Below are positions 4,323 to 46,247 of a DNA stretch of 50,312 nt, piece after piece. Where the stretch lies: NCBI GenBank assembly GCA_964367475.1, contig CAYIXQ010000001.1:1-50312 (forward strand), in the 5' to 3' direction. Both the position numbers and the translations under genes were made by a program. The DNA is from an uncultured Candidatus Saccharibacteria bacterium (GTDB lineage: Bacteria; Patescibacteriota; Minisyncoccia; 2-02-FULL-40-12; IGHO2-01-FULL-4-A). The first letter of the stretch is position 1, and each line of letters starts with the position of its first letter. The notes under the pieces were generated by a model, which saw only the letters and a list, made by a program, of their open reading frames with translations, was not told the origin of the DNA and searched no databases.

Positions 4323-5825
4323 TTATCGAGTAAATCTCGAGATGACGGTCTGATTTGCCCCAGTCCGTTTCAGGAGAATCACGACCGATTCGTCAAGATA
4401 AACCATTGGCCACCGGGGATCTTTGGAAATTCTACCCAAAAAAGTCTGGGCCCAGGGAGTGATATCATGGTGATCAAAAAATACGTAATTGATATGGTAT
4501 AATTCCGAGTACTTTTCCCAATCGGCCGGATTTTCCTGCATAGGTTTGTAAACTTTTTCAAAAAAATCTACGCTGTAGGCCTCTGGTCTGCCATCAACGA
4601 ATATTTTTTGTTCGGGATAAAGTTTCCAGATTAGGAAACTGCCCACATCAAAATTATTAAACACCGGTCCCGCTATTTCATACTGTTTAACAAATTCAAC
4701 CCCTCGTCTTGCTCCTTCTGGTATTTGCAGGCCAAACTTTTTGCTGCCGGCCAAAGAGGTAACACTGGCAGAGACAAACCAGTAGCTAACCGAAGACAGC
4801 AAAAGAAGATAAATCACTCCACCTATAAGCTTTACCACTTTTGACTTAAACCAGTTTAAATTGAAATAACTTAGGTTAAGCGCCATAACCGGTAGCATGG
4901 TATAACCGTATAAACTAAAGTTTCGAATCATCCTCATGGCTAAAACCGAGAACACCAGTCCAGCCAATATCTCAAACGTCAGTTTACGCCCTCTCACCAT
5001 CCAGGCGGGAACAAAAGAGGCGATCAGCGCCACCAAAGATATTTCAAAAACATTGATTTTTTCTTCGAGGATGCCATAATCTTTCAGAAAGAAAATTGAC
5101 TGATTCTCAACGATGGAATAGCCGTATTCACGCAAAATATTAAGGGGCGCCAAGGCGCCGTGAATAAAATGTGGATTGACGAGGGTGGCAGCAAGTGTAA
5201 ATCCAAATATGGCCGCTAACCGACGCCAGGTTTTTTTGTCGGCCCCGTTGATAATTTTATCTGCGAGAAAAAAGAACAATAATATCGGTCCCAGGGCAAA
5301 ATAAATGTGGCTGTTGGTCCAGATTATCTGAAGCAACGGTAAAAAAAACAAATAGCGGGAATCGTTTTCATATTTTGACCTAAATATCGAAAAAATGAAA
5401 AAAGAAAGGAGTAAATAGCTAAAAATTTCTGGTCGAACATCGGTTCTTTCGATTAGAATGAAAAAAACAGCGGTAAAAGAGAGTAAAAATGACCAAAACG
5501 GTACTAGCCGGCGGACAGATAAAAAAACAAAAGTAAAGGCTGAAAGTAAAACAATTATTTTGAAAACAATGAGACCATTTAATCCAGCAACACTGTTTAT
5601 CCAGAAGAAAATTACTTCACTTAGCCAGTGATGGTTAATAAACCGATGATCTGGTTCCGTGAAAGAAAATAGATTGGTATCCGGAACGCTCCTTGTTTGC
5701 CAGATAATTTCTCCTAATTTCAGATGTCGGCCGATATCCTGATTTATGGAATCAAGACTGTGGGTAAAAAATATTCCCAGAGTGATATAGGTAGCAATAA
5801 CAGCGATGATTTTCAAGTATTTCAT
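4323..5825 (-). CDS. Polytopic membrane protein, GT-C-like putative polyprenyl-phosphate-sugar-dependent glycosyltransferase
   Basis: A 500-aa ORF with many hydrophobic helices, followed by a ~130-aa soluble C-terminal domain (FNNFDVGSFLIWKLYPEQKIFVDGRPEAY). The call rests on architecture and genomic context. Family membership is not verified. Confidence 0.5.
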   Translation of the reverse strand: MKYLKIIAVIATYITLGIFFTHSLDSINQDIGRHLKLGEIIWQTRSVPDTNLFSFTEPDHRFINHHWLSEVIFFWINSVAGLNGLIVFKIIVLLSAFTFVFLSVRRLVPFWSFLLSFTAVFFILIERTDVRPEIFSYLLLSFFIFSIFRSKYENDSRYLFFLPLLQIIWTNSHIYFALGPILLFFFLADKIINGADKKTWRRLAAIFGFTLAATLVNPHFIHGALAPLNILREYGYSIVENQSIFFLKDYGILEEKINVFEISLVALIASFVPAWMVRGRKLTFEILAGLVFSVLAMRMIRNFSLYGYTMLPVMALNLSYFNLNWFKSKVVKLIGGVIYLLLLSSVSYWFVSASVTSLAGSKKFGLQIPEGARRGVEFVKQYEIAGPVFNNFDVGSFLIWKLYPEQKIFVDGRPEAYSVDFFEKVYKPMQENPADWEKYSELYHINYVFFDHHDITPWAQTFLGRISKDPRWPMVYLDESVVILLKRTGANQTVISRFTR

Positions 5826-7024
5826 TTAGAAAGCAGCTCTTCAAAAGAATTTATCATTTTTTCAGAGCCAAACTTGTGTATCAGGGTTTGATGGCCCTGA
5901 ATCCCCATTTCTTTAGCCGACATTTCATTTTCCAATAGAGTCTTAATTGTTTCTGCTAAACCTTGCCAGTGGCCGGGAGTAACCAAAAATCCGCTTTTAT
6001 TGTGCTCAACAATTTCCGGCACGGCACCCACGGAACTTGCCACCACCGGGAGCTTAGCGGCCATAGCTTCTAGCAATGACCAGGGAAAGCCTTCTTTAAC
6101 AGACGGAAGGACAAATATGTCGAAAGCGGGCAAATATTGGTAAGCATCGGGTATCTGGCCCACTAAAAAAACTTTTTTTTCCAAACCGTTCAGGCTGATG
6201 GCTTCTTCTAGCCTTGGTCTCTCGGGACCGTCGCCGATCACCATATACGCCAAGTCATCCCTATCTTTCAAATGGGCGGCTGCACGGATAAGATTATCGA
6301 TTCCTTTGGTAGGGTAAAGATTAGCAATTGTACCAATAATATATTTAGCCTGAAAAATTTTGCCAAACCGCCATGATATTTTTTCAAACAATTTAACTCT
6401 CGCCTCATCACGCGAAAAAAATTCAAGCCGGAAAGGGTCAAGTCCGTTATGAATCAAAAGTAAATTCTGTCGAGGTTTAATGCCATAACGTTTAGCTAGT
6501 TCAAAATCGTATTGGCTGTTAACCACAATATCATCTTTCCAGGCAGCGCTAATTTTTTCGAGTAAAATAAAAAGAGTTTTTTTCCACCGCGGCCAGGGAT
6601 CATTGAAGGTCCAACCGCCGATTCGATAAATAACTTTCATATTACGGCTACTACTTAATCGAGCCGCCAGTGACCCGATAAAGCCCGCCTTGGAACTATT
6701 GAGAAAAAGAATATCGGGTCTAAGCAATTTGATCAGGTTGCGGATTTTTTTGGTGGCGATAATATCAAAAAAGGGATTAATGACGCGTTTAAAAGATTTC
6801 ACGCTTAAAACATTTATACCAGTCCTAGAAAAATAGTTAATCAGGAAATCTTGACCAGAAAAAATGCCCGTCAGAACCGTGATTTCGTATTTAGTCCGGT
6901 CGAGGCGGGATATCAGCTGGTGTAAAAAACGCTGAGCGCCGCCATATTCAGATCGGGTAATTATAAATAAAACCCTTATTTTTGGCTTTAAATCAGCCTT
7001 TTTAACGAGGTTGATATTTTCCAT
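5822..7024 (-). CDS. Glycosyltransferase, GT-B fold (GT4-like)
   Basis: It carries the E-x7-E motif EGFPWSLLEAMAAKLPVVASSVGAVPEIV and an N-terminal RVLFIITRSEYGGAQRF. It overlaps the downstream gene by 4 nt. Confidence 0.85.
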   Translation of the reverse strand: MENINLVKKADLKPKIRVLFIITRSEYGGAQRFLHQLISRLDRTKYEITVLTGIFSGQDFLINYFSRTGINVLSVKSFKRVINPFFDIIATKKIRNLIKLLRPDILFLNSSKAGFIGSLAARLSSSRNMKVIYRIGGWTFNDPWPRWKKTLFILLEKISAAWKDDIVVNSQYDFELAKRYGIKPRQNLLLIHNGLDPFRLEFFSRDEARVKLFEKISWRFGKIFQAKYIIGTIANLYPTKGIDNLIRAAAHLKDRDDLAYMVIGDGPERPRLEEAISLNGLEKKVFLVGQIPDAYQYLPAFDIFVLPSVKEGFPWSLLEAMAAKLPVVASSVGAVPEIVEHNKSGFLVTPGHWQGLAETIKTLLENEMSAKEMGIQGHQTLIHKFGSEKMINSFEELLSK

Positions 7025-7029: not shown

Positions 7030-8193
7030 ATGGCATTATTGTATGACAAGATGACCCAAAAATCAAAGAGAATCTTGCTTTTTACGACCGCCTTCCAGCC
7101 ATTGATTGGCGGCTCGGAAATCGCCATTGAGTCTGTGGCCCGGCGACTGGGAGATGTTTTTTTTGATATTATTACACCTAAAAACCGTAGATCTCTGAAA
7201 ACCGTTGATAGCAAGAATAACATCTGTATTCACCGAATTGGATTTGGCTACGAATTTATTGATAAATATCTATTTCCGATTTTAGGCGCGTTGCGCGCTT
7301 TGCACCTCATGCGAGCTAAAAGCTACGCGGCTATCCATGCCTATCAGGCATCGCAGGGGGCCGGTGCCGCCTGGATTATCAAATGTCTAAAACCGGAAAC
7401 TAAATTTATTTTATCATTACAAGAGGGAAAAAATCTTAATGCTCAAAGTTGGTGGATAAAGTTTTTCAGAAATCTTATTATAAAAAAAGCCGACATCGTC
7501 ACCGGCATAAGTAACTATCTGGTTAATTATGCCCGCTCGATTAATCACCGCGCTGAAACACGTTTAATTTCAAATGGAGTGGACTCTGAAAAATTTATGA
7601 TCGTTGAAAACGCCAATCTTGCCCTGAAGAAAAAACTCGGCATCAAAGAATCTGATCGGGTGGTGATCTCGGTATCCCGGCTGGTTCCCAAAAATGGCCT
7701 GGCTAATCTGATCGAAGCAATGAGTTTGGTAAAGGAGCAAATTCCCGACGTTAAATTATTAATTATCGGGAGCGGACAATTGGCGGCGGATTTAAGAAAA
7801 ATGGCCGATACGCTTAACTTGAGGAGTGAGATTATTTTTTTAGGAGAAATTGAAAATAATCAGATCCCGTTTTATTTAAAATTAGCTGATGTTTTTGTTC
7901 GTCCTTCGGTGTCGGAGGGGCTGGGTATCTCTTTTTTGGAGGCCATGGCTGCCGGGGTGCCAATCATTGGCACGCCCGTAGGCGGTATTCCAGATTTTCT
8001 CGAGGATCGAGTTACGGGACTGTTTTGCAAAGTAGCTGACCGTCAAAGTGTGGCGGAAAAAGTTATGGAGATCCTCCGCGATCATGACTTAAGAATTAAT
8101 CTCATCAATAACGCCCGGCAGATTATTCAGGCAAAATATGATTGGCAAACCATTGCCGAACAATTTAGAGATATATATTTCCATGAGAAATGA
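7030..8193 (+). CDS. Glycosyltransferase, GT-B fold (GT4-like)
   Basis: It carries the E-x7-E motif [32 protein letters not shown]. An alternative start is the ATG at 7051. Confidence 0.85.
7038..7066 (-). promoter_or_regulatory. Sigma70-like promoter for 5822..7024, embedded in the 5' coding region of the divergent gene
   Basis: The minus strand reads TTGATT (7066..7061), a 17-nt spacer, then TACAAT (7043..7038). The start codon at 7024 is 13 nt downstream of the -10. Confidence 0.4.
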
Positions 8194-8908
8194 AAAACTA
8201 AGCATTATTATTCCCGTTTATAACGAGGCCAAAACGCTTGGCCCGTTGGTAGATTTAATAAATTCCGTAACTTTTATCGAAAAAGAATTGATATTTATTG
8301 ACGATGGTTCGACTGACAGCAGTCGGCAGGTTTTGTCCGCGCTGACTGATAAACACAAAGTGATTTTTCTTGAAAAGAACCGTGGCAAAGGCGCGGCCAT
8401 CCGGCGGGGCTTTCAGGAGGCAACGGGAGACCTGGTTTTGATCCAGGATGCCGATTTAGAGTACGATCCTCGGGAGTATATACATTTACTTCGTCCCATT
8501 ATGGATGATAAGGCCGATGTAGTTTATGGGTCGCGTTTTGTGACTAGCCGGCCACGACGAGTGCTTTACTATGATCATTATCTGGCAAACATTTTTTTGA
8601 CGTTTTTTTCAAATATTTTTACTGGATTAAATCTTTCTGACATGGAAACCTGTTATAAAGTTTTCCGCCGACAAAGCTTGGCTAAATTTGCCCCGCATCT
8701 AGTTTCAAACCGATTTGGCATTGAGGTCGAATTAACGTCGGAAGTGGCCAAGCACAAATTGAGGGTTTTTGAAGTCGGTATTTCTTATAACGGTCGAACT
8801 TATGCCGAGGGCAAAAAAATTACCTGGAAAGACGGCTTAGCGGCCATTTTTCATATTATTAGATTTAACCTTTTTCGCTCGTGCGATGAACGACAACCTA
8901 AAACCTAG
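8183..8908 (+). CDS. GT2 glycosyltransferase, polyprenyl-phosphate sugar synthase-like (soluble form)
   Basis: It has [18 protein letters not shown] and QDADLEYDP (DxD), the classic GT-A/GT2 signatures. The start at 8183 overlaps the upstream stop; the ORF extension to 8138 was rejected. Confidence 0.8.
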
Positions 8909-10064
8909 CTTACTTATTGCTACTGGAATTTTTGCTCCCGAAATCGGTGGCCCAGCCTCTTATATTAATACGCTCGCTGCTGGCATCGGTGCTGAATTCT
9001 CGATAAGGATCATTACCTATTCCCCCGTTTTAACTTATGCCGGGGATAAAAATTATCCCTTTCCGGTGACTCGAATATGGAAGGGCTTTCCCAAGGGACT
9101 CCGCCACTTAATCTATTTTATCAGGCTATTGGTACTGGTGAGAGGGTGCGATGCCGTGCTTTCCCTTAACAATATAAGCGCTGGCTATTTGACATTTTTA
9201 GCCGCCCGTTTATTTGGAAAAAAGTTTATCTTGAAAGTGCCGGGTGATTCTGCCTGGGAAAGAGCGGCGCTGACTAGAAAAACAGGCCTGCTCCTAGACG
9301 ATTTTCAAAAATCCGAAAAGACCGGCTATATTAAATACCTATACCAGGTTCAAGCTAAGACAGCTAAAAAAGCGGATGCCATCATCGTACCTTCGGAATA
9401 TTTGGCTAAAATTGTCAGGGGCTGGGGAGCTGATCCAACTAAAGTCCATGTCATTTACAACAGTATCGATATTAATATGCCAGCAAACTCAAAGGAGGAG
9501 GCCAGGAAAAAGATTGGCGTGGCTGGCAATGTAATCTTAGCCTATGGTCGCTTGGTGCCATGGAAAGGTTATACCATGTTGATCAAGCTTATGCCCGAAC
9601 TGTTAAAGTTAAACCAGTTTTTTAGGCTGGTAATTGTAGGCGATGGGCCGGAAATGCCTAAGCTTCGTCTCGCCGTTAAAAACTTAAGTTTAGTCAATAA
9701 AGTATATCTAGCTGGCAGTAAATCTAAGAACGAATTGTTAAACTATTTGGCCGCCGCGGATATTTTTATTCAAAATACGGGCTATGAAGGTTTTTCTCAT
9801 CAAATCGTCGAGGCCTTGGCGGCTGGTATTCCGGTGATTACCACTAACGTGGGTGGCAATCGGGAAATCATTCATCAGGGCGAAAATGGTTTTATGGTCA
9901 AATATAATGATGAATTTAACCTAATCGAAGCCATCAAGACGATCTGGCAAACCCCCGAACTAAGAGACCGATTTATTGAAAACGGAAAAAAAACAGCCGA
10001 ATACTTCAATTCGGGAAAAATGATCAGTGAAACCAGAAAATTATTATTAAGTTTGAGAAATTAA
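8886..10064 (+). CDS. Glycosyltransferase, GT-B fold (GT4-like)
   Basis: [30 protein letters not shown] (E-x7-E) and an N-terminal [18 protein letters not shown]. Confidence 0.85.
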
Positions 10065-10069
10065 TTTTT

Positions 10070-11194
10070 ATGAAACTCCTTATGATTTCGGGCGATCGAG
10101 CTCTGGCTGAAGGCAAACGTGGCGCTTTTTATAATACTCTGGAAGAGTTTCACAAACATTGGGACCGGATTGACATTATCTGTCCATTCGCGTCCAGTTC
10201 CAGCCCGGTCTTTAACCCGTTTGATAATATTTTTATTCATCCTTCCCCCTGGCCGCTATTATTACAGCCGCTTTGGATCATTAAAAAAGGCAAAGCCCTT
10301 TACCGCGAAATTGGTTATGATTTAATAACGGTTCATGAATTTCCGCCGTTTTATAATGGCCTGGGCGCCACCTGGCTTTGGGAAAAAATTGGCGTGCCGT
10401 ACCTCCTGGAAATCCACCACGTGCCGGGTTATCCTCGCGCGGCCGGATTGAAGGAATGGATCTATGAAAAACTTTTCCGGCTGGGTATTAGATTTGATGT
10501 CGCCCGGGCTAAAGCCGTCCGAGTGGTAAATAATTATCAGATACCCGATTATTTAATCTCGGCTGGTGTACCAAAAGAAAAAATATTTTTGATCCCGTCA
10601 TTCTATATTGACCTCGAAACCTTTAAACCCTTAAACCTTAGAACTTTTGAACTTTTAAACTTCTCAAAGCGGTACGATTTAATTTTTGTCGGACGTTTAG
10701 TAAAAAATAAAGGGATTGAACTTTTCCTTAAAACTGTGGCCGAATTGGCTGGAAAAGCCCTGATTGTTGGCGATGGTCCTTTACGGGAGAGTTTAAAGTT
10801 AAAAGTTAAAAATTTGGGGCTGGAAGATAAAGTCACTTTTCATGGTTGGGCCAAGGATGCGTCAGAAATTGCGACCCTAATTAATCAAGCCAAGTTACTA
10901 GTGGTTACCTCATATAACGAAGGTGGCCCGAGAGTTTTACTTGAAGCCCTGGCCTGTGGGGTGCCGGTAGTGACAACTGATGTTGGGATCGCCCGGGACT
11001 TACAAGCGGCGGGAGTAATTGATGAACCATGCCAATGGGATGCCCATGATATTGCCGCTACTTCTCGGCAGTTGCTGGAGGATGCCCAAAAATACGAAAA
11101 GTTATCCAACCTCGGGCTGGAATACGTCAAGCAGTTTGAATACAAAGCGGCAATCAAGCAATATGCTGATAAGTTAAAATCTCTTCATGGTTAA
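10070..11194 (+). CDS. Glycosyltransferase, GT-B fold (GT4-like)
   Basis: NEGGPRVLLEALACGVPVVTTDVGIARDL (E-x7-E). Confidence 0.85.
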   Translation: MKLLMISGDRALAEGKRGAFYNTLEEFHKHWDRIDIICPFASSSSPVFNPFDNIFIHPSPWPLLLQPLWIIKKGKALYREIGYDLITVHEFPPFYNGLGATWLWEKIGVPYLLEIHHVPGYPRAAGLKEWIYEKLFRLGIRFDVARAKAVRVVNNYQIPDYLISAGVPKEKIFLIPSFYIDLETFKPLNLRTFELLNFSKRYDLIFVGRLVKNKGIELFLKTVAELAGKALIVGDGPLRESLKLKVKNLGLEDKVTFHGWAKDASEIATLINQAKLLVVTSYNEGGPRVLLEALACGVPVVTTDVGIARDLQAAGVIDEPCQWDAHDIAATSRQLLEDAQKYEKLSNLGLEYVKQFEYKAAIKQYADKLKSLHG

Positions 11195-14017: not shown

Positions 14018-14095
14018 CACTTCTAAGTACATAATTTATTATGTTTGTATCAGGTCTTTTAGTTTTTACCTTTAACTGTGGAAATGAAATATGAC

Positions 14096-14122
14096 GCCGA
14101 TCCTGCAAAAGTCGGCTTTTTT
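14096..14122 (+). terminator. Intrinsic terminator
   Basis: gccgat (14096..14101) pairs with gtcggc (14111..14116) across a 9-nt loop, followed by T6 (14117..14122). Confidence 0.55.
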
Positions 14123-14123
14123 A

Positions 14124-14152
14124 TTGATATTTTAACAGTTTTTCGATATATT
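14124..14152 (+). promoter_or_regulatory. Sigma70-like promoter for the 14179.. operon
   Basis: TTGATA (14124..14129), a 17-nt spacer, then TATATT (14147..14152). Confidence 0.5.
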
Positions 14153-14167: not shown

Positions 14168-14178
14168 TTATTGATTCA

Positions 14179-15423: not shown

Positions 15424-15436
15424 AAAATAGAAACTC

Positions 15437-36868: not shown

Positions 36869-36899
36869 CTGCGGGGCGACATTGCTATAGTTGATCATT

Positions 36900-37802
36900 A
36901 TGGAAAACATTGCCTGTGATTATTGCGGAAGTCGGGAATCGGAAACTCAATGGATTGCTCCAGATCGTCTGACAAATACAGGCGAATTTTTTTCGGTCGT
37001 TAAATGTTCGAATTGCGGACTGGCTTTCGTCAATCCACGGCCGGAGATTGGCGAAATTAACCAATATTATCAATCTGATTATTGGGCGTATGTTCGCTTA
37101 ACCAGAATCAGATGGTGGCTTAAAAAAATCATTCTCTATCGGGAACTGAAAATCCTGAAAAAAATATTGCCACCCAGCGCTAAAATCCTGGAAGTTGGCA
37201 CCGGCAGCGGGGAAGATATGGCCTTTCTGCGGGATAGAGGGAAATTTACCGTTCAGGGCCTAGACATTAGTCATAACGCCGTGAGTACTGGTCGTCGAGA
37301 ATTCGGGCTGAATATTGAGCAAGGAGAGCTGGAGTCTAAAAATTATCCTGAATCCTTTTTCGATCTGGTTAGACTGAAGTTTATCATTAGCCATGTTCAT
37401 CAGCCAAAAAGATTTTTGATTGAAGTCAATCGAATCCTAAAACCCGGCGGCCATATCCTGATGTGGGTTCCTAATTTTAGTTCATGGAGTCAAAAAATCT
37501 TTAGAGATTTTTGGCTTGGTGGCGAACCACCAAGACATCTTTACGATTTTAGCGAAATTACATTGACTAATTACTTAAAGGCCACAAATTTCAAAATTTT
37601 GAAATTGAGGCACAGTATCGCCCCTAATGTTTTCGTCCATTGTTTTCGATATTGGCTAGCCGCGCACGGGGTTCCTAAACTTTTTGTCATCTTTTTTTCA
37701 ATAAATATTTTCAGCTTAATTGTTTTTATGCCGTTTTCACTTTTAGCTTCGCTATTCAGAGCCAGTGACCGCCTTTTCATTATTGCCCAGAAGATAAAAT
37801 GA
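36900..37802 (+). CDS. Class I SAM methyltransferase with N-terminal zinc ribbon
   Basis: CDYCGSRESE...VKCSNCGLAFVNPRP, ILEVGTGSGED and FDLVRLKFIISHV. The ATG at 36900 is preferred over the TTG at 36891. Confidence 0.75.
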   Translation: MENIACDYCGSRESETQWIAPDRLTNTGEFFSVVKCSNCGLAFVNPRPEIGEINQYYQSDYWAYVRLTRIRWWLKKIILYRELKILKKILPPSAKILEVGTGSGEDMAFLRDRGKFTVQGLDISHNAVSTGRREFGLNIEQGELESKNYPESFFDLVRLKFIISHVHQPKRFLIEVNRILKPGGHILMWVPNFSSWSQKIFRDFWLGGEPPRHLYDFSEITLTNYLKATNFKILKLRHSIAPNVFVHCFRYWLAAHGVPKLFVIFFSINIFSLIVFMPFSLLASLFRASDRLFIIAQKIK

Positions 37803-38746
37803 ACATCTCAAGAATAATTTTTTCTGTATTTTTAGCCGGTCTTTTTATTTTTTTGCTTTTCCGGCAGGTTGATTTTGCCAATGTCCGAGAATTGGGGCGA
37901 AACTTAAACTGGACCTACAGTGTACTGGCTTTTTTGGCCTATTTTGGCCTGAATGTTTTACGAGCCATTAGGTTTGAGCTGCTTTTGAACCGAGCGGTTA
38001 AGCTCCGGGCTATGCTGAATATCATTTTTGTCCAAAATTTTTTTAATGTCATACTACCTTTTAGACTGGGCGAACTGTCATATATTCACTTTATCAGGTC
38101 ATATAATATTAGCTTTGGTAAAAATATGGCCTCGCTGATTGGCGCCCGCTTTTTAGATCTTTTAAGCATTGTCATAATTTTTCTTTTCTCCCTTTTCTCT
38201 CTGATCCAAACGGTTAGTTATTCCATAACCTTAATAATAGTAAGCCTCGTTTTGATATTAATCCTGTTTATCGTATTACCCCTATTTTTTTGGCTTTTTG
38301 GAATTATCGAACACCGATTAACTGTAAAAAACTCCGATGGAGCTCTGGGCTTTATTTTAAGAAAGGTTATTGAAGTCAGGACATCTTTAATTAGTTTAAA
38401 CCATCAGCGTCTTTTAATAAATGCCGGTGTTCTATCGTTAGCTATTTGGCTGATGACATTTTTAGTTGGCATGTTTTTGTTTCGAAGTGTGCTAATAAAT
38501 TTTGGTTTTTGGGAAGCGGTTTTCGCGTACGCTTTTCCCGTTGTTGCTAGTTTTACTCCATTTCATTTTTTTGCCGGTTTTGGCAGCTATGAAAGCGTAA
38601 CCAGCCTCGGTTTGATTATTTTAGGATTAAACAATAACGTCGCCATCAGCTCAAGTCTGATGCTCCATTTACAGGAATTAGTTTTTGTCGTTATTCTAGC
38701 GATGGTGGGTTTCTGGCAGATGACGCGTTCCCGACATGAAAAATAA
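37799..38746 (+). CDS. UPF0104 / LPG_synthase_TM-like (flippase-like) polytopic membrane protein
   Basis: The N-terminus FLAGLFIFLLFRQVDFANVRELGRNLNWTYSVLAFLAYFGLNVLRAIRFELLL is the typical family signature. About 8 hydrophobic helices follow. Confidence 0.65.
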   Translation: MNISRIIFSVFLAGLFIFLLFRQVDFANVRELGRNLNWTYSVLAFLAYFGLNVLRAIRFELLLNRAVKLRAMLNIIFVQNFFNVILPFRLGELSYIHFIRSYNISFGKNMASLIGARFLDLLSIVIIFLFSLFSLIQTVSYSITLIIVSLVLILILFIVLPLFFWLFGIIEHRLTVKNSDGALGFILRKVIEVRTSLISLNHQRLLINAGVLSLAIWLMTFLVGMFLFRSVLINFGFWEAVFAYAFPVVASFTPFHFFAGFGSYESVTSLGLIILGLNNNVAISSSLMLHLQELVFVVILAMVGFWQMTRSRHEK

Positions 38747-41195
38747 CTTCAAGATAATCTTATTTCTTTTTAGCTTGGCCGTCATTTCCGGTTTTTTTTG
38801 GAACCAGCGCATTTTGGGGGAACCGATTTCTAACGATCAAATAGTTTATGATGGTGTGGCCAAAGATATCATCGAAAGGGGAACATTTACTTTCAAAAGC
38901 AAGAGCACTTATATAGAGCCGGTCTATCCTTATTTTCTGGCTGGAGTATACAGAGTTTTTGGATATAATTTTGATGCCGTGCGAGTTGTCCAAATATTTA
39001 TCTTTGGACTAACGGTGATCTTCTCTTACTTAATCACAAAAGATTTTTTGGGTCAGCGGAAGGCCGTTATTGTCGGGATCGTATCGGCAATATTTTATGG
39101 TTTGGCTACTCAAGCCGGAGTTATTCAAACTGATGTGATATTTACTTTTCTGGTAGTGGTTACCGCCTGGTTTTTGGGTAAGACCATTAGTTCAACAAAG
39201 TTTTTTTGGCCATTATTTTTAGGTTTAATTTTAGGTCTGACCACCCTGACGCGGGGGATTGCCCAGTACCTGATTGTTTTTATTATCGTCTATTTTTTTC
39301 TTTATTTTAGGAAGATTAATCTTAAAAGAGGTATTTATAAAACTGTATTTACCGTCATCGGCTTTACGGCAGTTATATTACCTTGGTTGTTAAGAGCGGA
39401 TTTCGAATCGGCCAATGCCACCGTGACGCCGCGAGGCGGGGAACTGCTAATTACCCGGGCCGAGCTGATGGAAAATACCTATCCCCACTATGGTAGTCAT
39501 TTAATCGGTCATCTTTTCGGATATTATTTTGCCCAATTTTTTGATCCGGCAGTTTCCGCCAGCGCCTTTCGGGAAGCGGCGGCCAGTGAGGAGAAAATTT
39601 ATAGTCTGCTCGCTCGGGGCGTAAGTCACGCAGAGCTTGATAGGATTTTAACAGCCGAAGGGCGTCAAAGAATATTAAACCAGCCCTTTAAGTATTTATT
39701 ATTTTCTTTTCTCGACTTTATTAGTTTTAATAGTCCGATTATTCCTGAAAGTCCATATTGGCAAAATTCGGTGGCTATCCACCCAATGTTTGCAGACGGT
39801 CGCCATCCGGAAATTCCGCCTTATCAAAAAGTATTGTTCGTTTTGAGTTTACGAGTAGTTTGGTTTGTACTAATTTTTTGGGTGATTTACGGATTTGTTA
39901 AGAAAAGACAGCAATGGCCAAAATTTTGCGTATTGCTGGTGTTTATAATTTATTTCAACCTTATTTATAGCTTGATTCATGCCATACCCCGCTATGCCTT
40001 GCCAATCTACCCGTTTTACTTTATTTTAGCGACAGTTGGAATTTCCGCCCAGCCCATGATTTACTCAAAATTTCGCAATATTCTTATATTTTTATTATGT
40101 CTTTGGCGATATTTGCAATCCGGTAAGGCCAATAAGATTCCCAGCCAGCCCAGCCGAATTTTAATTGTCCAATTGGCCGGTGTGGGCGATATGGTTTGCA
40201 CCACGCCCATGTTTAGGGCCATAAAGCTTAAATATCCCGAAGCACGGTTAATTGTTCTGGGCAGCGGGAGCAATAAGGATTTATTGGAGAATAATTCTGA
40301 TGTTGATCAGTATATAATTCATCAAGACAGTTTTTGGAAACAGCTTGACCAATTTAAAAAACTGGACATCAATTTTGCCGCCATTACCGCTCCCAGATTT
40401 TCAGTGCTTGCCCAACTATATCTAGCGGGTGTAACGGCCATTGTCACGCCCTACATTACCAACGGTCACAGCCCGTACGAAACCAAACTTTATCGGTTGA
40501 TAAGGAAGGTGGCTGTTCAAAAAGAGCATAAAATGGAGCATTATGCCGGCCGGGAGTACCTTAAATTGCTTGAACCACTGAACATTAAAACTGAAGATAC
40601 TGCTAAACATCTGGCATTTTCGCGAACTTCCGAATCGAAGGTTCTCGATTTCTTTAATAATTCGGGAATTTATCCGGCCGGCGATTTTATTGTTGGAATA
40701 TCGCCTTCATCCGGAAATAAAATAAAAAACTGGTCGGCAAAAAAGTTTGCCAGGCTAGCAGACCACCTGATAGAAAAATACCACGCCAAGATAATTGTCA
40801 TTGGAGTGGCCGATGATAGCCAGGAAGTCCAGGATTTGATAAAATCAGCATTATTCGGGACAAAAATTTTCGACACTCTCAGCCTTTTTAATTTAGAGGA
40901 ACTGAAAGCGTTAATTTCAAAAATGAACCTATTCGTTAGTGTTGATACTGGGCCGATTTATATTGCTGAAGCATTTCACGTGCCGACAGTAGATATTATC
41001 GGCCCGATTGACGAACGAGAACAGCCACCGATCGGAGAATTTCACAAAATTGTAGTGGCGCAAAGAAAGAAACCTGAATTATACGTTATGAATGCGCGCC
41101 GTTATAATCGCCGGGAGGCAATCAGACAATCAGAGGCCATCAGCACAGAAATGGTCATCGAAAAAGTAGACGAATTGATTCAAAAAGCCAATTGA
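38736..41195 (+). CDS. Fusion protein: GT-C (ArnT/PMT_2, GT39/83-like) membrane domain plus C-terminal GT9 heptosyltransferase-like domain
   Basis: Residues 1..~450 are polytopic with an ArnT-like start (DQIVYDGVAKDIIERGTF...EPVYPYFLAGVY). From ~460 on it carries ILIVQLAGVGDMVCTTPMFRAIKLKYPEARLIVL, GISPSSGNKIKNWSAKKF and LFVSVDTGPIYIAEAFHVPTVDIIGP, the RfaF/WaaC (GT9) signatures. Confidence 0.75.
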   Translation: MKNNFKIILFLFSLAVISGFFWNQRILGEPISNDQIVYDGVAKDIIERGTFTFKSKSTYIEPVYPYFLAGVYRVFGYNFDAVRVVQIFIFGLTVIFSYLITKDFLGQRKAVIVGIVSAIFYGLATQAGVIQTDVIFTFLVVVTAWFLGKTISSTKFFWPLFLGLILGLTTLTRGIAQYLIVFIIVYFFLYFRKINLKRGIYKTVFTVIGFTAVILPWLLRADFESANATVTPRGGELLITRAELMENTYPHYGSHLIGHLFGYYFAQFFDPAVSASAFREAAASEEKIYSLLARGVSHAELDRILTAEGRQRILNQPFKYLLFSFLDFISFNSPIIPESPYWQNSVAIHPMFADGRHPEIPPYQKVLFVLSLRVVWFVLIFWVIYGFVKKRQQWPKFCVLLVFIIYFNLIYSLIHAIPRYALPIYPFYFILATVGISAQPMIYSKFRNILIFLLCLWRYLQSGKANKIPSQPSRILIVQLAGVGDMVCTTPMFRAIKLKYPEARLIVLGSGSNKDLLENNSDVDQYIIHQDSFWKQLDQFKKLDINFAAITAPRFSVLAQLYLAGVTAIVTPYITNGHSPYETKLYRLIRKVAVQKEHKMEHYAGREYLKLLEPLNIKTEDTAKHLAFSRTSESKVLDFFNNSGIYPAGDFIVGISPSSGNKIKNWSAKKFARLADHLIEKYHAKIIVIGVADDSQEVQDLIKSALFGTKIFDTLSLFNLEELKALISKMNLFVSVDTGPIYIAEAFHVPTVDIIGPIDEREQPPIGEFHKIVVAQRKKPELYVMNARRYNRREAIRQSEAISTEMVIEKVDELIQKAN

Positions 41196-42928
41196 TAATT
41201 TTAGGGATACATATTGATACCCACGATACCGGAGCGGTCATCTTAAAAGATGGCCGTATTGTTGCCGCTATTAACAAAGAAAGATTATCCCGTAAAAAAA
41301 TGGATGGCAGCGCGCCCTATCGCTCGATTAAGGAAGTTATGAAAATCAGTGACATTAAGGAAAACGATATTAACGTCATTGCTTTTTCTGGGTTTAAGCC
41401 CGGTTTTAAAAAACTTTTCTATTTTTTCTGGCAGCAGCACCAGCGAGTTTGGTTTACAAAGTTTAGTTACCTCAAATCTTTTATTAATCCGAAAACTTTT
41501 GCGGCGGGCAGATTTTTACGCCAAACGGGACTAGCCGGTATTAAGGAATTTTTCAGAGTCAGCTGGCACACTTATGCGATTATCCGCCATTTCCGCGCCG
41601 AGGGTTTTAAAGGCAAGGTCGAATTTATCAATCATGACTTATGTCATGCCGCCGGCGCCTACTTTACTTCCGGCTTTGAGAGAGGCCTGGTAGCTATTAT
41701 TGAAGGTTCCAGCTTTGCCAATACCGGTTCTTTTTGGTGGGCCGAAAACGGTCAACTCAAAAAGGTTTACGAAATTCCACTGCCTCATAGCATTGGGCGA
41801 TATTATGAAACCGTTACTGCCATCTTGGGCTTTAATGCTCATCGGCATGGCGGAAAAATTACCGGCCTGGCAGCGCTGGGTGATTCCAATAGGCTTTATG
41901 AAAAAGTGGCTGTCTTGCTAAGGATAAATGATCTTAAAGTTACCGTTCACCCCAAACTTTATAGTCTTTACGACGAGTATTTTGCCAGAGGAAAGAAGTT
42001 ACCAGAATATTTTGGCGACAACAGACGTGAGGATGTAGCCGCAGCTTTCCAAAAAAGATTGGAAGATGTGACCCTTGAATTCCTAAAAAATCTGTTGCAA
42101 CGTTATCCCGCCAATTCAATAATGCTCTCGGGCGGTGTGGCCGCCAATGTTAAACTTAACATGGAAATAATGCAGTTGCCCAGCATTCAAAAAGTTTTTG
42201 TCCATCCGGGAATGTCTGATGTCGGTCAAGCCATGGGGGCGGCACTAGCTACTGCCAAAAAATACGAACCTGGCTTCGGGCCATTTGAATTGAAAGACGT
42301 ATATTTTGGGAATTCCTATAGCGATAAGGAAATCGAGAATTATTTGGTACAGAACAAAATTGATTTTTCTGTTCCGGAAAATTTGGCCGAAGCGGCCGGG
42401 CGGTTGTTAAGCCAAAACAAAGTAGTGGGGATTTATCATAGTCGAATGGAATATGGTCCCAGAGCTTTGGGTAACCGGTCGATTCTTTATCCGGCTACTG
42501 ATCCAGCCGTCAATGACTGGCTTAATAAACGACTTAACCGCACCGAATTTATGCCCTTTGCCCCTGTAACTTTGGAGGAAAGGGCCTATGACTGTTATAA
42601 TAAATCTGATATTGACAAATCCAGATTGGCTACCCGTTTTATGACAATAGCTGTTAAAGTTACGGATTATATGAAAAAAAATATGCCGGCGGCAGTGCAT
42701 GTGGACGGTACCGCCGGGCCGCAGTTGATCAGCCGCGATTTAAATCCTTTCTATTATGATGTTATAAAATACAACGAAAATATCACCGGTCTACCCAGTC
42801 TGGTTAATACCAGTTTCAACATGCACGAGGAACCGATTGTTTGTAGTCCGGGGGACGCTGTCAAAGCCTATGAACAAAGCCGACTTGAGGCGCTCGTGAT
42901 TGGCAAATATTTAATCACGCATAAATAA
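41192..42928 (+). CDS. NodU/CmcH-family carbamoyltransferase
   Basis: IILGIHIDTHDTGAVILKDGRIVAAINKERLSRKK, HDLCHAAGAYF and the C-terminal EYGPRALGNRSIL...NTSFNMHEEPIV. The start is TTG and overlaps the upstream stop. Confidence 0.8.
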   Translation: MIILGIHIDTHDTGAVILKDGRIVAAINKERLSRKKMDGSAPYRSIKEVMKISDIKENDINVIAFSGFKPGFKKLFYFFWQQHQRVWFTKFSYLKSFINPKTFAAGRFLRQTGLAGIKEFFRVSWHTYAIIRHFRAEGFKGKVEFINHDLCHAAGAYFTSGFERGLVAIIEGSSFANTGSFWWAENGQLKKVYEIPLPHSIGRYYETVTAILGFNAHRHGGKITGLAALGDSNRLYEKVAVLLRINDLKVTVHPKLYSLYDEYFARGKKLPEYFGDNRREDVAAAFQKRLEDVTLEFLKNLLQRYPANSIMLSGGVAANVKLNMEIMQLPSIQKVFVHPGMSDVGQAMGAALATAKKYEPGFGPFELKDVYFGNSYSDKEIENYLVQNKIDFSVPENLAEAAGRLLSQNKVVGIYHSRMEYGPRALGNRSILYPATDPAVNDWLNKRLNRTEFMPFAPVTLEERAYDCYNKSDIDKSRLATRFMTIAVKVTDYMKKNMPAAVHVDGTAGPQLISRDLNPFYYDVIKYNENITGLPSLVNTSFNMHEEPIVCSPGDAVKAYEQSRLEALVIGKYLITHK

Positions 42929-44313
42929 TGAAAACTATTTTTATTTCCAGCTTTCACCCCTTTATTTCCCGGAACGTTCTTAATACAGATATTTTTAAGA
43001 TTTTAAGAAGCAACACCGATTTAAAAATAATTATTCTTGTACCTGAAGAGAAGAAACAGTTTTTTGTTCAGTATTATAGCGCTGGCAACGTGATTATCGA
43101 GGGGTTCAATCAAAAACCGATCCGGACCTCGCGTTTTAACAAATTTTTTCATAATGCTGCATTTCTTCTCATTAAAACACATTATACTTACTATACTAAG
43201 TGGGATCGCCTAAAGGTTAATCCGACATTAGTGGGCAGGATAAAATTTTTAATTGAAAATATTCTAACTAATATTCTGGCTGGTCATAAGTGGGCCAATA
43301 AACTTTTCAGATTATTTGATAATTTACTTACGGCGGCTAACTTCTACCAACTCTACTTTGACAAATATAAACCGGCAGCCGTTTTTGCCACCGACATTTA
43401 TAATGATTATGACCAGTTGTTAATAAAAGAAAGCAAAACTCGGCTTGTTCCGGTAGTTGGCATGATCCGATCGTGGGATAACAATTATAGTAAGGGCCTC
43501 TGCCGTTTTTTGCCGGATAAACTCATAGTTAATAATGAGACTATCAAAAAAGAAGCCGTGATGATGCACAACTTTAGGCCAGAAAATATATTTATTGGCG
43601 GCATACCCCAATTTGATGATTATCTGAAAGCCCCGTTTTTAAGCCGGGAAGAATTTTTCCAAAAAATTGACGGTGATCCGGCTAAAAAAATGGTTCTGGT
43701 TTCACCGGCTGGCTTTCCACTGGTGTCCCTAGAGGAAGATATCAATATGTGCCAGATTCTTAAAGAGGCCCAGGATCGGGGCGATATCAGTCAGGCTGTT
43801 CAATTCCTGATCCGTAGTCATCCCCATCGACCGGTACTCATTCAGGGATTTGAAGGCGTTAAAAACTTTATTATTGAATCACACAGCACCACTTCTAAAA
43901 CCCAGGGCAAGGGCGCCGAATTCACACTTCAGGACAAGCTCCACTTGGTTGATTCGATATACTATGCCGATGTTGTAATCTGGGCGGCAACATCACTGGG
44001 CATTGATTCCTTGGCCATGAATAAACCCCAAATCCTAATAAATTTTGATGGCTTAAAAAAGAAAGACTATTGGGATAGTGTCAGGCGTTTTCATGACGAA
44101 GAACATATGAAAAAGTTTCTTAATACCGGTGCCGTGCTGGTGGCAAATGATGGAGAAGAACTTGTAGGGCATATTAATCGGTATTTGGAAAACTCAAGAC
44201 TGCTTACTGACGAAAAAAAAACCGCCGCAGCGCAACAGCTGTGGAAAAATGATGGCCAATCCGGTCAAAGAATAGGAAATTTTATCCTTGAGTTTATTCA
44301 GTCACACACCTAA
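42928..44313 (+). CDS. Hypothetical protein, possibly GT-B-like transferase
   Basis: A 461-aa ORF translationally coupled to its neighbours. The alternating beta-alpha pattern (KTIFISSFHPFISRN, AAVFATDIYNDYD, VVIWAATSLGIDS) suggests two Rossmann-like halves. No family was recognised with confidence. Confidence 0.4.
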   Translation: MKTIFISSFHPFISRNVLNTDIFKILRSNTDLKIIILVPEEKKQFFVQYYSAGNVIIEGFNQKPIRTSRFNKFFHNAAFLLIKTHYTYYTKWDRLKVNPTLVGRIKFLIENILTNILAGHKWANKLFRLFDNLLTAANFYQLYFDKYKPAAVFATDIYNDYDQLLIKESKTRLVPVVGMIRSWDNNYSKGLCRFLPDKLIVNNETIKKEAVMMHNFRPENIFIGGIPQFDDYLKAPFLSREEFFQKIDGDPAKKMVLVSPAGFPLVSLEEDINMCQILKEAQDRGDISQAVQFLIRSHPHRPVLIQGFEGVKNFIIESHSTTSKTQGKGAEFTLQDKLHLVDSIYYADVVIWAATSLGIDSLAMNKPQILINFDGLKKKDYWDSVRRFHDEEHMKKFLNTGAVLVANDGEELVGHINRYLENSRLLTDEKKTAAAQQLWKNDGQSGQRIGNFILEFIQSHT

Positions 44314-44316
44314 AAA

Positions 44317-45510
44317 ATGAAAAACAATATTATCTTTGAGGATTTTTTACTATCAACCAAGGTTGGGAAATTGGATATTGATGAGAATATTCCGTTTGAA
44401 GAGCTAAAAAATTGTCCCGCCTGTCGCACGGAAAGACAAGTGGTAGCGGAGTTGCAATCCAGGCGAACGTCAAAAAAAATTAGATATGGTATTTGTGCTA
44501 CCTGTGGGTATATGGGTTACATTGATCGTCCCAGTCAGGATTGGCTGGCGAATTATTATTCGCGGGATTGGGATAAATTAATCACTCGCTCAATTGAGGA
44601 AATCCGATCTGAAACCGGCCTAGAGGCTAAAAGCGGACCAAAAACCAGCCGGTTTATCGCTTTTAGTTTGGCACAGCAGTTACCGATAGATAAGAATAAA
44701 TCAATCTTGGAGATTGGCAGCGGTTACGGCGAGGTTCTCAAAAATTTTAAAGATATCGGTTTTAATTCAGTTGTTGGCGTGGAAAATTCGGAACATCGGG
44801 CAAAAATTGTAACCGAAGCCTTTGACATACCGGTTTTTTCGGGAGAATTTGAAAATCATCAGGTCCAAAAAAACCTCGCGAATTTTAAGCCATTTGGACT
44901 CATCTTTAGTCATCACGTTTTGGAACATACTTTTAATCCAGACGAAATTATTAATAAGATAAGCGACCTCCAGGACGATGGGGGATATTTGGTACTAGCT
45001 CTGCCCAATGCTATGGGGGAACATATCAATTACGCTTTATTCTATTTAGTCCATTTACATTCTTTCACCAAAGAATCGCTGGAAATAATCTTGAACCGGA
45101 ATGGTTATCAAATTATCAAGGATAATTCACCCGATCCAACCAATATTATTCTAGCGGCCCAAAAAAGCACCAATCCAAAATCAATTTTTCCTAGACGCAA
45201 TGATTATTTCGATTGTGCCCGCAACAGAATAATAAGGGCATTGGGCATGGATAAAATCCAGCAAGGATCGGCGTATGAGATAAAATGGGAACAAAAACTC
45301 GATAACTCTGACCCGTCACAGGTGTTAAAACTTAATTTTGGAAAAGTCAACTGGTGGTTGAAAAAAGCCATGTCTTTCATTAAACGAAAACTCGGGCGTT
45401 ACTCTACGGTTTACACTTTTTTGATCAGTGTGGTGGATAGCAGCGATTCTGCCACCACCGGACCTATCAGAATATTTTTTAAAGATAAAATTAAACTCCT
45501 TGCCAAATGA
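44317..45510 (+). CDS. Class I SAM methyltransferase with zinc ribbon
   Basis: CPACRTERQ...GICATCGYMGYIDRP, ILEIGSGYGE and FGLIFSHHVLEHT. Confidence 0.7.
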   Translation: MKNNIIFEDFLLSTKVGKLDIDENIPFEELKNCPACRTERQVVAELQSRRTSKKIRYGICATCGYMGYIDRPSQDWLANYYSRDWDKLITRSIEEIRSETGLEAKSGPKTSRFIAFSLAQQLPIDKNKSILEIGSGYGEVLKNFKDIGFNSVVGVENSEHRAKIVTEAFDIPVFSGEFENHQVQKNLANFKPFGLIFSHHVLEHTFNPDEIINKISDLQDDGGYLVLALPNAMGEHINYALFYLVHLHSFTKESLEIILNRNGYQIIKDNSPDPTNIILAAQKSTNPKSIFPRRNDYFDCARNRIIRALGMDKIQQGSAYEIKWEQKLDNSDPSQVLKLNFGKVNWWLKKAMSFIKRKLGRYSTVYTFLISVVDSSDSATTGPIRIFFKDKIKLLAK

Positions 45511-46247
45511 AATTCTTTAATCCCGACAATATAAAAAAAGTTCAACTCTTCACCGCCCCGTCCGGTTTTCGTTATGGTCTGATTGAGAATATTTTTTATG
45601 AAAATGTGTTTGATCAATTGGTCAAAACATTTCCGGATGTTAAAAAATTTAAGTTTGTGGACAAGCCATCGGGTGGTGGCCGCAAAAGATTTTATGTTGG
45701 CCCGGTTTATGATGCCAATAAACACCAGGGTTGCATTTGTCACTTTGATGATCTTGATCCGATCTGGCTTAATGTAGTTCACGAATCGGCCTCGGCTGAA
45801 TTGATAAATTTATTTCAGGAAGTCAGCGGAATTAAATGTAACAATGTGGCTGTTTTCGGTTTTACTTATGGAAAAGAAGGTTGCGTTCAAGAACCGCATG
45901 TTGACGGGGCAGTTCGTGAAGACCGAAGCAATGCTTTTTCAACCATTGCCACCCTAATCTATTTTAATAAAGATTTAAACGGTAAAAGCGGCACCTGCGT
46001 TTACGCACCTGATCGCCAGACAAAACTTTATCAAGTCCAGAATATGCGCAACACCCTTTTCTTTTTCGAACAACATCCCGACGCCTGGCATGGCTTTCCA
46101 TTAATGCCGGCCGGTGAAGAAAGACGATTAGTCAGTTTAGCGTACGGTCAAGAAAGTCAACCATCAATTCTAAAAAACTCTCTCACACATAAACTAACTT
46201 GCAAACTGCGATATAAATCACTTGCTAAAAAACTCTTGTCTATCTAG
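45507..46247 (+). CDS. Putative 2OG-Fe(II) oxygenase-like protein
   Basis: A candidate HxD...H triad: QEPHVDGA (H-x-D) and a distal PDAWHGFP. The size and beta-rich pattern fit a double-stranded beta-helix. Not verified. Confidence 0.45.
   Translation: MKFFNPDNIKKVQLFTAPSGFRYGLIENIFYENVFDQLVKTFPDVKKFKFVDKPSGGGRKRFYVGPVYDANKHQGCICHFDDLDPIWLNVVHESASAELINLFQEVSGIKCNNVAVFGFTYGKEGCVQEPHVDGAVREDRSNAFSTIATLIYFNKDLNGKSGTCVYAPDRQTKLYQVQNMRNTLFFFEQHPDAWHGFPLMPAGEERRLVSLAYGQESQPSILKNSLTHKLTCKLRYKSLAKKLLSI

Follow-up and report, generated by a model that had tools for sequence, protein, structure and literature searches.

The locus and its genes

We analyzed a 50,312-bp stretch of DNA (hereinafter, the window) that is the whole of contig CAYIXQ010000001.1 of a metagenome-assembled genome (MAG), the rest of that genome being outside our view. 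The contig comes from Hainich groundwater metagenomes collected on 0.1-µm filters, and its source is an uncultured, ultra-small groundwater bacterium of the Patescibacteria, or candidate phyla radiation (CPR), namely, a Yanofskybacteria-like Patescibacterium. Close homologues of the window proteins all belong to Patescibacteria/CPR, including Yanofskybacteria, Azambacteria, Paceibacterota and related groups. The window carries a 46-kb island of glycosyltransferase (GT) and sugar-tailoring genes that are dense and mostly co-directional, with many start/stop codon overlaps and unassigned gaps of at most 493 nt (Table 1). A first-pass annotation, made from the sequence without database searches, had interpreted this island as an extracytoplasmic glycosylation system driven by sugars linked to polyprenyl monophosphate (Pol-P), with three GT2 enzymes resembling Pol-P-sugar synthases, four polytopic GT-C-like proteins or domains, a UPF0104 flippase-like membrane protein and about ten cytoplasmic GT-B enzymes.

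All the genes it listed exist as open reading frames (ORFs), at or within ~45 nt of the positions it gave. Its inventory was borne out by Pfam scans of every window ORF of at least 150 aa, complemented by NCBIfam and PDB searches. The three GT2 genes have matches in Pfam, NCBIfam and PDB; the four GT-C proteins or domains were recovered through PMT_2, a near-threshold TMTC_DUF1736 match and, in two cases, AlphaFold2 models compared with Foldseek; and the GT-B count comes to ten GT4-type genes, one GT9 domain and one weak TagB/F-like protein (Pfam, NCBIfam). For comparison, ORFs were called in 80 related loci and matched to the window proteins. Below, A1 and A2 denote the families of the protein encoded at 4323..5825 (GT-C1) and of the C-terminal domain encoded at 22483..24873 (GT-C3), respectively.

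Table 1. Gene map of the window (TM, transmembrane; SDR, short-chain dehydrogenase/reductase)
Feature	Position	Strand	Description	Evidence
1254-aa secreted protein	494..4258	+	Cys-, Pro- and Ser/Thr-rich; N-terminal TM or signal segment	
GT-C1 (A1)	4323..5825	-	~500 aa; ~11 TM helices and C-terminal outside domain	
GT4a	5822-7024	-	Cytoplasmic GT-B; conserved core	Pfam Glycos_transf_1/Glyco_transf_4; synteny in ~20 species
GT4b	7030-8193	+	Cytoplasmic GT-B; conserved core	Pfam Glycos_transf_1/Glyco_transf_4; synteny in ~20 species
GT2-1	8138..8908	+	Soluble; conserved core; internal alternative start at 8183	
GT4c and GT4d	8886..11194	+	Conserved core	Pfam, synteny
GT-C2	11187..12938	+	TMTC-like; at least 9 TM helices; C-terminal TPR array	
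GT4e to GT4i	12941..22481	mixed	GT4e, sugar C-methyltransferase, 4,6-dehydratase-like SDR, GT-B (-), GT4g, MetW-like methyltransferase, GT4h, RmlD-like reductase, GT4i	Pfam, NCBIfam
GT2-GT-C fusion	22483..24873	+	GT2-2 (residues 1-235) and GT-C3 (A2, ~236-796)	
Exported trio	24998..27869	+	REP; p154 (membrane-anchored); 398-aa surface-protein N-domain with SH3_3	
Arn-like block	27917..31679	+	GT2-3 (ORF 27917..28819; internal alternative start at 27953), RmlC/FdtA-like cupin, ArnA-N-like formyltransferase, DegT aminotransferase	
Tailoring block	31690..37802	+	GT4-like enzyme, methyltransferase, two SDR epimerase/dehydratases, second sugar C-methyltransferase, methyltransferase	Pfam, NCBIfam
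LPG_synthase_TM (UPF0104)	37799..38746	+	At least 6 TM helices; overlaps both neighbouring genes	
GT-C-GT9 fusion	38736..41195	+	GT-C4 (PMT_2, ~1-460) and GT9 heptosyltransferase-like GT-B (472-815)	
Carbamoyltransferase block	41192..46247	+	NodU-like carbamoyltransferase, TagB/F-like GT-B, methyltransferase, weak 2OG-Fe(II)-like protein	Pfam, NCBIfam; block kept in locus L092
Window end	47132..50234		B12-radical-SAM-like protein, HAD phosphatase, CMP-sugar cytidylyltransferase	Pfam

Donor synthases and membrane glycosyltransferases

All three GT2 enzymes match PF00535, and the top NCBIfam model for each is AglJ, with dolichyl phosphate (Dol-P)-hexose transferase (a haloarchaeal model), PgfS, PpgS and ArnC among the others. 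These sequence matches support their assignment to the Pol-P-sugar synthase class (DPM1/GtrB/ArnC/AglJ). GT2-1 matches the AglJ model with 110 bits over residues 21-243 and PpgS likewise over its full length, as well as ArnC and the Dol-P-hexose transferase, and in PDB, it matches dolichyl-phosphate-mannose synthase (DPMS; 5mlz, 1e-16) and ArnC (1.6e-14) with its N-terminal half only. Like human DPM1 or Ppm1-D2, GT2-1 has no TM helices and thus would need a membrane partner; it was found in 18 related loci and, from its sequence, is a candidate initiator or donor synthase. GT2-2, which is fused to a polytopic domain, matches Pyrococcus furiosus DPMS in PDB (5mlz, E=2.4e-29). GT2-3 aligns over nearly its full length (residues 17-259) with GtrB (5ekp, 2e-15) and ArnC (5e-14), and ends in two TM helices, which is typical of GtrB and ArnC.

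GT2-3 opens an Arn-like block in which the best model for the formyltransferase is the ArnA N-domain (114 bits), with the flippase-like gene and a PMT_2 (ArnT-superfamily) GT-C located downstream. The cupin isomerase in this block implies a dTDP-3-amino-6-deoxyhexose rather than Ara4N, and the likeness to Arn is one of analogy, not of pathway membership.

Two of the GT-C assignments could be resolved only by structure prediction because they have no sequence matches. For A1, there was no Pfam match even at E<=10 across 60 family members and no NCBIfam match; for the A2 domain, there was no match in Pfam or NCBIfam; and neither family matched anything in PDB by single sequence or with profiles of 54-60 sequences. 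We therefore modeled both with AlphaFold2, from alignments of 60 (A1) and 54 (A2) sequences, and searched PDB with Foldseek. The models have high confidence scores (pLDDT 91.8 for A1 and 93.5 for A2), and the matches at E<=1e-3 are GT-C structures only. A1 has 21 such matches, most of them to STT3 (2e-7, TMq 0.63), AglB or PglB, with DPY19 scoring equally (5e-7) and ArnT also represented; ALG9 and AftB appear at weaker E-values. The A2 domain matches DPY19 (3e-6), AftA (4e-6, TMq 0.55), STT3, PglB and ALG12, and at weaker E-values, ArnT. Thus, the GT-C fold of A1 and of the A2 domain is confirmed at the level of predicted structure, and the two are separate families given that hhalign shows no relationship between them (probability 7%).

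The first-pass annotation had found no PglB-type oligosaccharyltransferase (OST) in the island, and this holds at the level of sequence, where A1 has no Pfam STT3 membership and no WWDYG motif, but needs qualifying at the level of predicted structure, where STT3, AglB and PglB are its closest counterparts. A1 also shows a weak structural match to the C-terminal globular domain of AglB. The sequence of A1 offers several candidate sites: D30, which is at least 90% conserved in the “INQDIGRH” segment of the first outside loop; “RxDxRPE” (127-133) in an outside loop; “[S]-I-V-E” (237-240), which is reminiscent of the TIXE/SVSE motif; and “NFDxG” (391-395), part of an invariant “FNNFDxG” at 389-395, ~35 residues past the last TM helix, which sits where WWDYG would and is the candidate for a motif in that position. 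In the first outside loop of A2, D47, D57 and D60 are each at least 90% conserved, as is the “DD” pair D33/D34 in the first outside loop (EL1) of GT-C2, the loops being placed by AlphaFold2 secondary structure and TM prediction. A search returned 803 homologues of A1, and the family has members in at least 375 GTDB species, virtually all of them Patescibacteria.

The remaining two GT-Cs are recognizable by sequence. GT-C2 falls just short of the TMTC_DUF1736 cut-off (25.8 vs 27 bits) and has clear TPRs; in an alignment of the window protein with 49 relatives, TMTC_DUF1736 was detected at E<=0.01 in 18 of the 50 sequences (best, 9e-11), and a PDB search with the family profile was swamped by TPR matches. 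GT-C4 exceeds the PMT_2 cut-off (51 vs 26 bits), and the GT9 domain fused to it matches PDB entry 3tov (5e-16). This fusion is rare: besides the window protein, only two full-length homologue clusters (P0242, P0243) were found among 44 matches. By family precedent, the active sites of all four GT-Cs probably face outward. That any of these membrane proteins might be a Wzy, ligase, phosphoglycosyltransferase (PGT) or MOP flippase was considered and rejected, there being none among the Foldseek matches of A1 and A2 and no such Pfam domain. As a separate observation, in two Azambacteria loci (L090/L091, 13615-17135), a PMT_2-GT9 gene lies near fusions of a CTP-transferase with a phosphoenolpyruvate mutase and of a thiamine diphosphate enzyme with an iron alcohol dehydrogenase, which hints at phosphonate-decorated glycans.

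Gene neighborhoods, GT-B enzymes and secreted proteins

Coupling of the GT2 synthases to the GT-Cs is supported by the fusions, by the Arn-like block and by synteny in ~20 species. The GT2-GT-C fusion is retained in two other MAGs at ~51% identity (P0122, P0123), whose A2 domain is unfused in the majority of relatives; relatives of GT2-2 are fused to PMT_2/PMT domains (some with TPRs), to GtrA and once to Polysacc_synt (P0192); and a GT2 is often found joined to relatives of the GT-C4 PMT_2 domain. Natural synthase-flippase fusions, in which a GT2 relative is joined to Polysacc_synt (MOP flippase), or to GtrA and FHA, were observed in P0192, P0233 and P0240.

The order A1/GT4a/GT4b/GT2-1/GT4c/GT4d, followed by the REP-p154-SH3 trio or a TMTC-like gene, then GT4e and onward, is shared by ~20 other species, and therefore, the co-occurrence of these genes is not due to chance. 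Locus L009 preserves a backbone of GT4d, the trio, GT4e, GT4g, MetW, GT4h, GT4i and the GT2-GT-C fusion, at 36-56% identity (28% for the MetW-like protein). In L092, the latter half of the island is preserved, beginning with the two SDR genes at 33749, with the SDRs, C-methyltransferase, methyltransferase, LPG_synthase_TM in the same position and PMT_2-GT9, and continuing with the carbamoyltransferase, TagB-like protein, methyltransferase, a 245-aa protein and the radical SAM protein. Neither the GT4-like gene nor the first methyltransferase of 31690..37802 was seen at this locus, which belongs to the same MAG whose contig 1 bears the A1 core. Polysaccharide deacetylase genes were also noticed within the syntenic GT4 cluster in L042 (17860-18639) and L054 (17107-17895); these could act on a lipid-linked amino sugar, much as ArnD or HpnK does.

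For the ten GT4 enzymes, NCBIfam yielded only generic, sub-threshold matches, such that no acceptor can be inferred from them. The top model for GT4c is PglJ, which acts on undecaprenyl diphosphate (Und-PP)-linked substrates, with a score far under the cut-off, and GT4b weakly matches a monoglucosyldiacylglycerol (MGlcDAG) synthase, the lipoteichoic acid (LTA)-anchor enzymes IagA/BgsA and the adhesin O-glycosyltransferase SdgA. Separately, the GT4b gene, whole in the window as well as in L006/L007, is split into ORFs of 243 and 137 aa in L005 (7633-8796), which could reflect either a frameshift variant within the population or faulty assembly. The flippase-like protein reaches 110 bits with PF03706 and 37 bits with the TIGR00374 “flippase-like” model (cut-off 43).

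The exported trio encoded within the cluster consists of candidate acceptors or a scaffold. REP (24998-26176) is a 392-aa protein with 23% Ser and Thr and ~2.5 copies of a ~120-aa repeat, and a PDB search with it returned only noise. At E<=1e-3, the repeat unit occurs in 320 representative clusters, with as many as 12 copies per protein and protein lengths reaching 6,605 aa (P0287-P0294). The trio is kept within the GT cluster in L009, L010, L019 and L052. The middle domain of the SH3_3 protein corresponds to the N-terminal domain of ~1,200-aa proteins with 21% Ser/Thr that are encoded beside A1 in 28 of the 80 loci, in most cases accompanied by one to three TMTC-like genes. The suggestion that co-encoded secreted repeat proteins may be the acceptors, made in the first-pass annotation, fits this embedding of Ser/Thr-rich proteins in the cluster in several species.

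The 1254-aa protein at the opposite end of the island is a candidate surface glycoprotein with a weak link to the cluster: it has a homologue in only one of the 80 related loci. The local GC content is 0.53. The protein contains 61 Cys residues, Pro-rich linkers, seven C-x-x-G-x-[WY]-W-D-x5-C modules and a match to CBM_14 (peritrophin-A). The counterpart of the 494-4258 region encodes a 1246-aa protein in L005 and is fragmented in L006, which suggests a variable or hard-to-assemble repeat region.

Among the window ORFs of at least 150 aa, Pfam detected no PGT (Bac_transf, Glycos_transf_4), Polysacc_synt, Wzy_C, Wzz, STT3 or ABC_tran, and tblastn found no Wzy_C remnant in the window, in agreement with the first-pass annotation, which had recognized no PGT, Wzx, Wzy, Wzz, ligase or ABC exporter. 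Sibling assemblies extend the locus by ~7 kb in total, and these flanks contain neither an initiator nor an exporter, nor any Wzy, Wzz or ligase gene. An ABC_tran ATPase or ABC2 permease is likewise absent from both the window and the flanks. Upstream, ~1.5 kb carries two small or partial genes; downstream, ~6 kb (L002 1-6102) encodes AP_endonuc_2, an SDR, NeuB, two methyltransferases and a partial gene. Together with the HAD phosphatase and cytidylyltransferase (window 48774-50234), these downstream genes look like a CMP-nonulosonate module, and the 47132..50234 segment is the start of such a nonulosonate/Kdo-type module that runs past the contig end. Likewise, no PGT, MOP flippase or ABC exporter was found among the related-locus ORFs scanned, which comprised the commonest neighbor cluster representatives and the unassigned or polytopic ORFs of ~20 syntenic loci.

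One further ORF, of 144 aa (46597-47031, minus strand; beginning MIIYQRQTHAVYHTRYHIVFTTKFRRKLL), resembles, by eye, an IS200/IS605 Y1 transposase. It is located in a patch with a GC content of 0.49, compared to ~0.41, between the glycan genes and the radical SAM/nonulosonate genes.

Interpretation and comparison with known systems

Most likely, the island decorates surface proteins or lipids outside the membrane. The explanation we favor, with a probability of roughly 0.6, is a composite cell-envelope glycosylation system that combines Pol-P-sugars, outward-facing GT-Cs, a lipid-linked glycan extended by GT4 enzymes and exported protein acceptors. Under this scheme, the GT2 enzymes would charge polyprenyl monophosphate with sugars on the inner side of the membrane, the products would be flipped, and each GT-C would transfer the flipped sugars outside the membrane. 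In the cytoplasm, the GT4 series would extend a lipid-linked glycan, possibly with the Pol-P-sugar from GT2-1 as its direct starting point, in the manner of AglJ in Haloferax, in which case no PGT would be needed in cis. After flipping, A1 or the TPR-bearing, TMTC-like GT-C might deliver the glycan to exported Ser/Thr-rich proteins, with the REP/p154/SH3 trio and, in relatives, the ~1,200-aa S-layer-like proteins as candidate acceptors. The remaining GT2/GT-C pairs would attach individual sugars as decorations, among them an Arn-like formamido sugar. Judging by homology or fold, the products of the tailoring enzymes would be unusual sugars with 6-deoxy, amino/formamido, C-methyl, O-methyl and carbamoyl modifications. 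The Ser/Thr-rich proteins, the TPR arrays and the STT3/DPY19-type fold point to protein acceptors. The GT-B enzymes without an initiator had been left unexplained in the first-pass annotation; we likewise found no initiator, but there is a precedented answer, namely, that an AglJ-type GT2 starts the glycan (PMC3871713), and an Agl-type route of this kind, which needs no PGT, would account for the orphan GT-Bs.

Several observations weigh against this explanation. First, in L010 (11515-13761), L018 and L019, the three closest relatives, the gene beside the A1 orthologue encodes a 748-aa protein with a Wzy_C domain (O-antigen ligase family) and C-terminal TPRs; a Wzy_C protein is also present in L048, and in the window, the 1254-aa Cys-rich protein takes the place of this gene. 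Given that Wzy_C enzymes use diphosphate-linked glycans, a PGT-dependent route would operate at least in these three relatives, and an Und-PP-linked glycan route may lie elsewhere in the window genome. Accordingly, of the first-pass claim that the island runs on Pol-P-sugars rather than on a Wzx/Wzy or ABC pathway, the positive part is upheld by the GT2-to-GT-C coupling, but the exclusion is not established. Second, in 40 more distant species, A1 is found amid housekeeping genes (RuvABC and a P-type ATPase, for example), and so its role is perhaps broader than the island. Third, the NCBIfam scores of the GT2 enzymes are far under the equivalog cut-offs (for example, 110 vs 325 bits for AglJ) and hence identify the class and not the sugar specificity. 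Fourth, Pfam detected no GtrA, SMR or MATE flippase in the window, and the assignment of LPG_synthase_TM as a candidate flippase of lipid-linked sugars in the MprF family is a family-level guess from sequence. Fifth, the secreted proteins show no enrichment of N-X-S/T sequons. More generally, the donor, the carrier and the acceptor in this explanation are putative.

The alternative that fares best, which we regard as possible but on the unlikely side, is that a repeat unit is initiated on Und-PP by a PGT whose gene lies outside the contig, extended by the GT4, GT9 and TagB-like enzymes, exported by a Wzx/MOP flippase or ABC transporter encoded elsewhere, and attached to protein or cell wall by a Wzy_C ligase or O-oligosaccharyltransferase, with the GT2/GT-C pairs adding only side-chain sugars, as in Gtr systems. 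The Wzy_C genes of the relatives, including the one in L048, argue in its favor. In Gram-positive bacteria, PGT genes are often unlinked from their clusters. The PglJ match of GT4c, the fusion of distant GT9 relatives to WecB/TagA-family domains and the Polysacc_synt flippase domain joined to a GT2 relative in P0192 point the same way. Against these stand the lack of PGT, MOP, ABC and Wzy_C genes in 50 kb plus the ~7-kb flanks, and of PGT, MOP and ABC genes among the scanned ORFs of the ~20 syntenic loci. Furthermore, four GT-Cs and three GT2s far exceed the usual needs of side-chain modification, and GT2-1 is an integral, conserved part of the GT4 core.

A lipoglycan or glycolipid system, like mycobacterial phosphatidylinositol mannoside/lipomannan/lipoarabinomannan (PIM/LM/LAM) or corynebacterial LM-B, is unlikely in our estimate. 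In such a system, GT4 and GT9 enzymes would glycosylate a membrane lipid anchor on the cytoplasmic side, LPG_synthase_TM would flip it, and the GT-Cs would extend it with Pol-P-sugars, with the secreted proteins as bystanders. No PGT would be required; the flippase-like protein belongs to the lipid-flippase family of MprF; GT9 enzymes classically act on glycolipids; and the structural matches of A1 and A2 include AftA, AftB, PimE, EmbB and AftD. However, the top structural matches are to STT3 and DPY19, which are protein-modifying GT-Cs, GT-C2 bears TPRs as TMTC does, and the Ser/Thr-rich exported proteins are retained within the cluster across species. The matches of GT4b to MGlcDAG synthase and IagA/BgsA would also fit a lipid anchor, but all GT4 matches are generic and far under the cut-offs.

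Direct glycosylation of not yet exported proteins by the GT-Bs, as with SdgA/GtfA or the bacterial autotransporter heptosyltransferases (BAHT) and functionally unrelated to the GT2/GT-C pairs, is highly improbable: GT4b has its weak SdgA match, and GT9-like enzymes include autotransporter heptosyltransferases, but these matches are generic, there is no accessory Sec system and no serine-rich repeat substrate, and the tight, overlapping operon and conserved order bind the GT4s to GT2-1 and the GT-Cs.

To return to the composite system that we favor, a more ambitious version of it is that A1 founds a compact, Patescibacteria-wide family of STT3/DPY19-like protein glycosyltransferases that, together with the AglJ-like GT2 and the GT4s, would constitute an archaeal-style, Pol-P-based en bloc pathway acting on S-layer-like proteins. 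The candidate sites in A1 listed above are the sequence leads for this version, which we consider unlikely. If it is true, such a monophosphate-carrier route with an STT3-like enzyme would blur the divide between archaeal and bacterial protein glycosylation and could provide small OST-like enzymes for glycoengineering. A literature search on Patescibacteria combined with GT-C or OST found nothing directly relevant. Patescibacteria/CPR account for a large share of bacterial diversity and are host-attached, and their surface chemistry is almost unstudied. The island and its conserved core provide a concrete parts list for their surface glycans, including two GT-C families that lack annotation, of which one spans nearly the whole lineage, and candidate glycoprotein substrates, and the natural synthase-GT-C fusions reveal the pairing of donors with enzymes.

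The scheme of a Pol-P-sugar synthase, a flippase and a GT-C is well established, and three-component systems of this kind have been reviewed (PMC11127046). The island is a variant of this known extracytoplasmic glycosylation with lipid-phosphate-sugars, its notable features being the two unannotated GT-C families, the unusual fusions and the conserved candidate substrates. With GtrA/GtrB/Gtr*, CsbB/GtcA/YfhO, Streptococcus mutans Pgf and ArnC/ArnEF/ArnT, it shares the GT2 synthase and GT-C, three to four times over, and PgfS and ArnC are among the best NCBIfam/PDB matches of its GT2s. In contrast to these systems, it has LPG_synthase_TM in place of a GtrA, SMR or MATE flippase, two GT-C families without Pfam matches, a GT2-GT-C fusion and a GT-C-GT9 fusion, and adds ~12 GT-Bs with no visible backbone pathway. 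In comparison with the Arn system for Ara4N, the island possesses an ArnA-N-like formyltransferase, an ArnB-like aminotransferase, an ArnC-like GT2 and a PMT_2 GT-C, whereas no ArnD-type deformylase and no ArnE/F were found in the window.

Two other systems resemble parts of the island. Protein O-mannosylation by actinobacterial PMT/Ppm1 and metazoan TMTC/PMT, and C-mannosylation by DPY19, share with it a Pol-P-Man-type donor from a DPMS-like GT2 and GT-Cs of the PMT_2 and TPR-bearing TMTC-like types, and in the island Ser/Thr-rich secreted proteins are encoded nearby; however, the island has many more components, its sugars are probably not simple mannose, and the TMTC_DUF1736 match of GT-C2 falls just short of the threshold. 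The mycobacterial PIM/LM/LAM and arabinan pathways (PimA/B, PimE/Mpt/Aft/Emb, Ppm1) similarly combine PGT-free GT4 steps with subsequent Pol-P-dependent GT-C steps outside the membrane, and AftA, AftB and PimE are among the structural matches of the island proteins, but we found no evidence of a phosphatidylinositol anchor and no sequence membership in GT85, GT87 or GT89 for the island.

The Agl N-glycosylation pathway of Haloferax volcanii (AglJ/G/I/E, AglB, AglD/R/S) offers a comparison for the conserved core. There, the GT2 enzyme AglJ attaches the first sugar to dolichyl monophosphate, the glycan is lengthened by further transferases, AglB moves it to the S-layer protein, and AglD/AglR/AglS add the last mannose from Dol-P-Man outside the membrane (PMC3871713). 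The core of the island likewise comprises an AglJ-like GT2, four to five GT4s and an STT3-like GT-C, with a second GT2 and GT-C that would add a final outside sugar and a presumed target of the surface-layer type. The island differs in being bacterial, in employing GT4 rather than GT2 extenders, in having no AglR-type MOP flippase, and in an STT3-like protein without the STT3 Pfam signature or WWDYG and secreted proteins without sequon enrichment.

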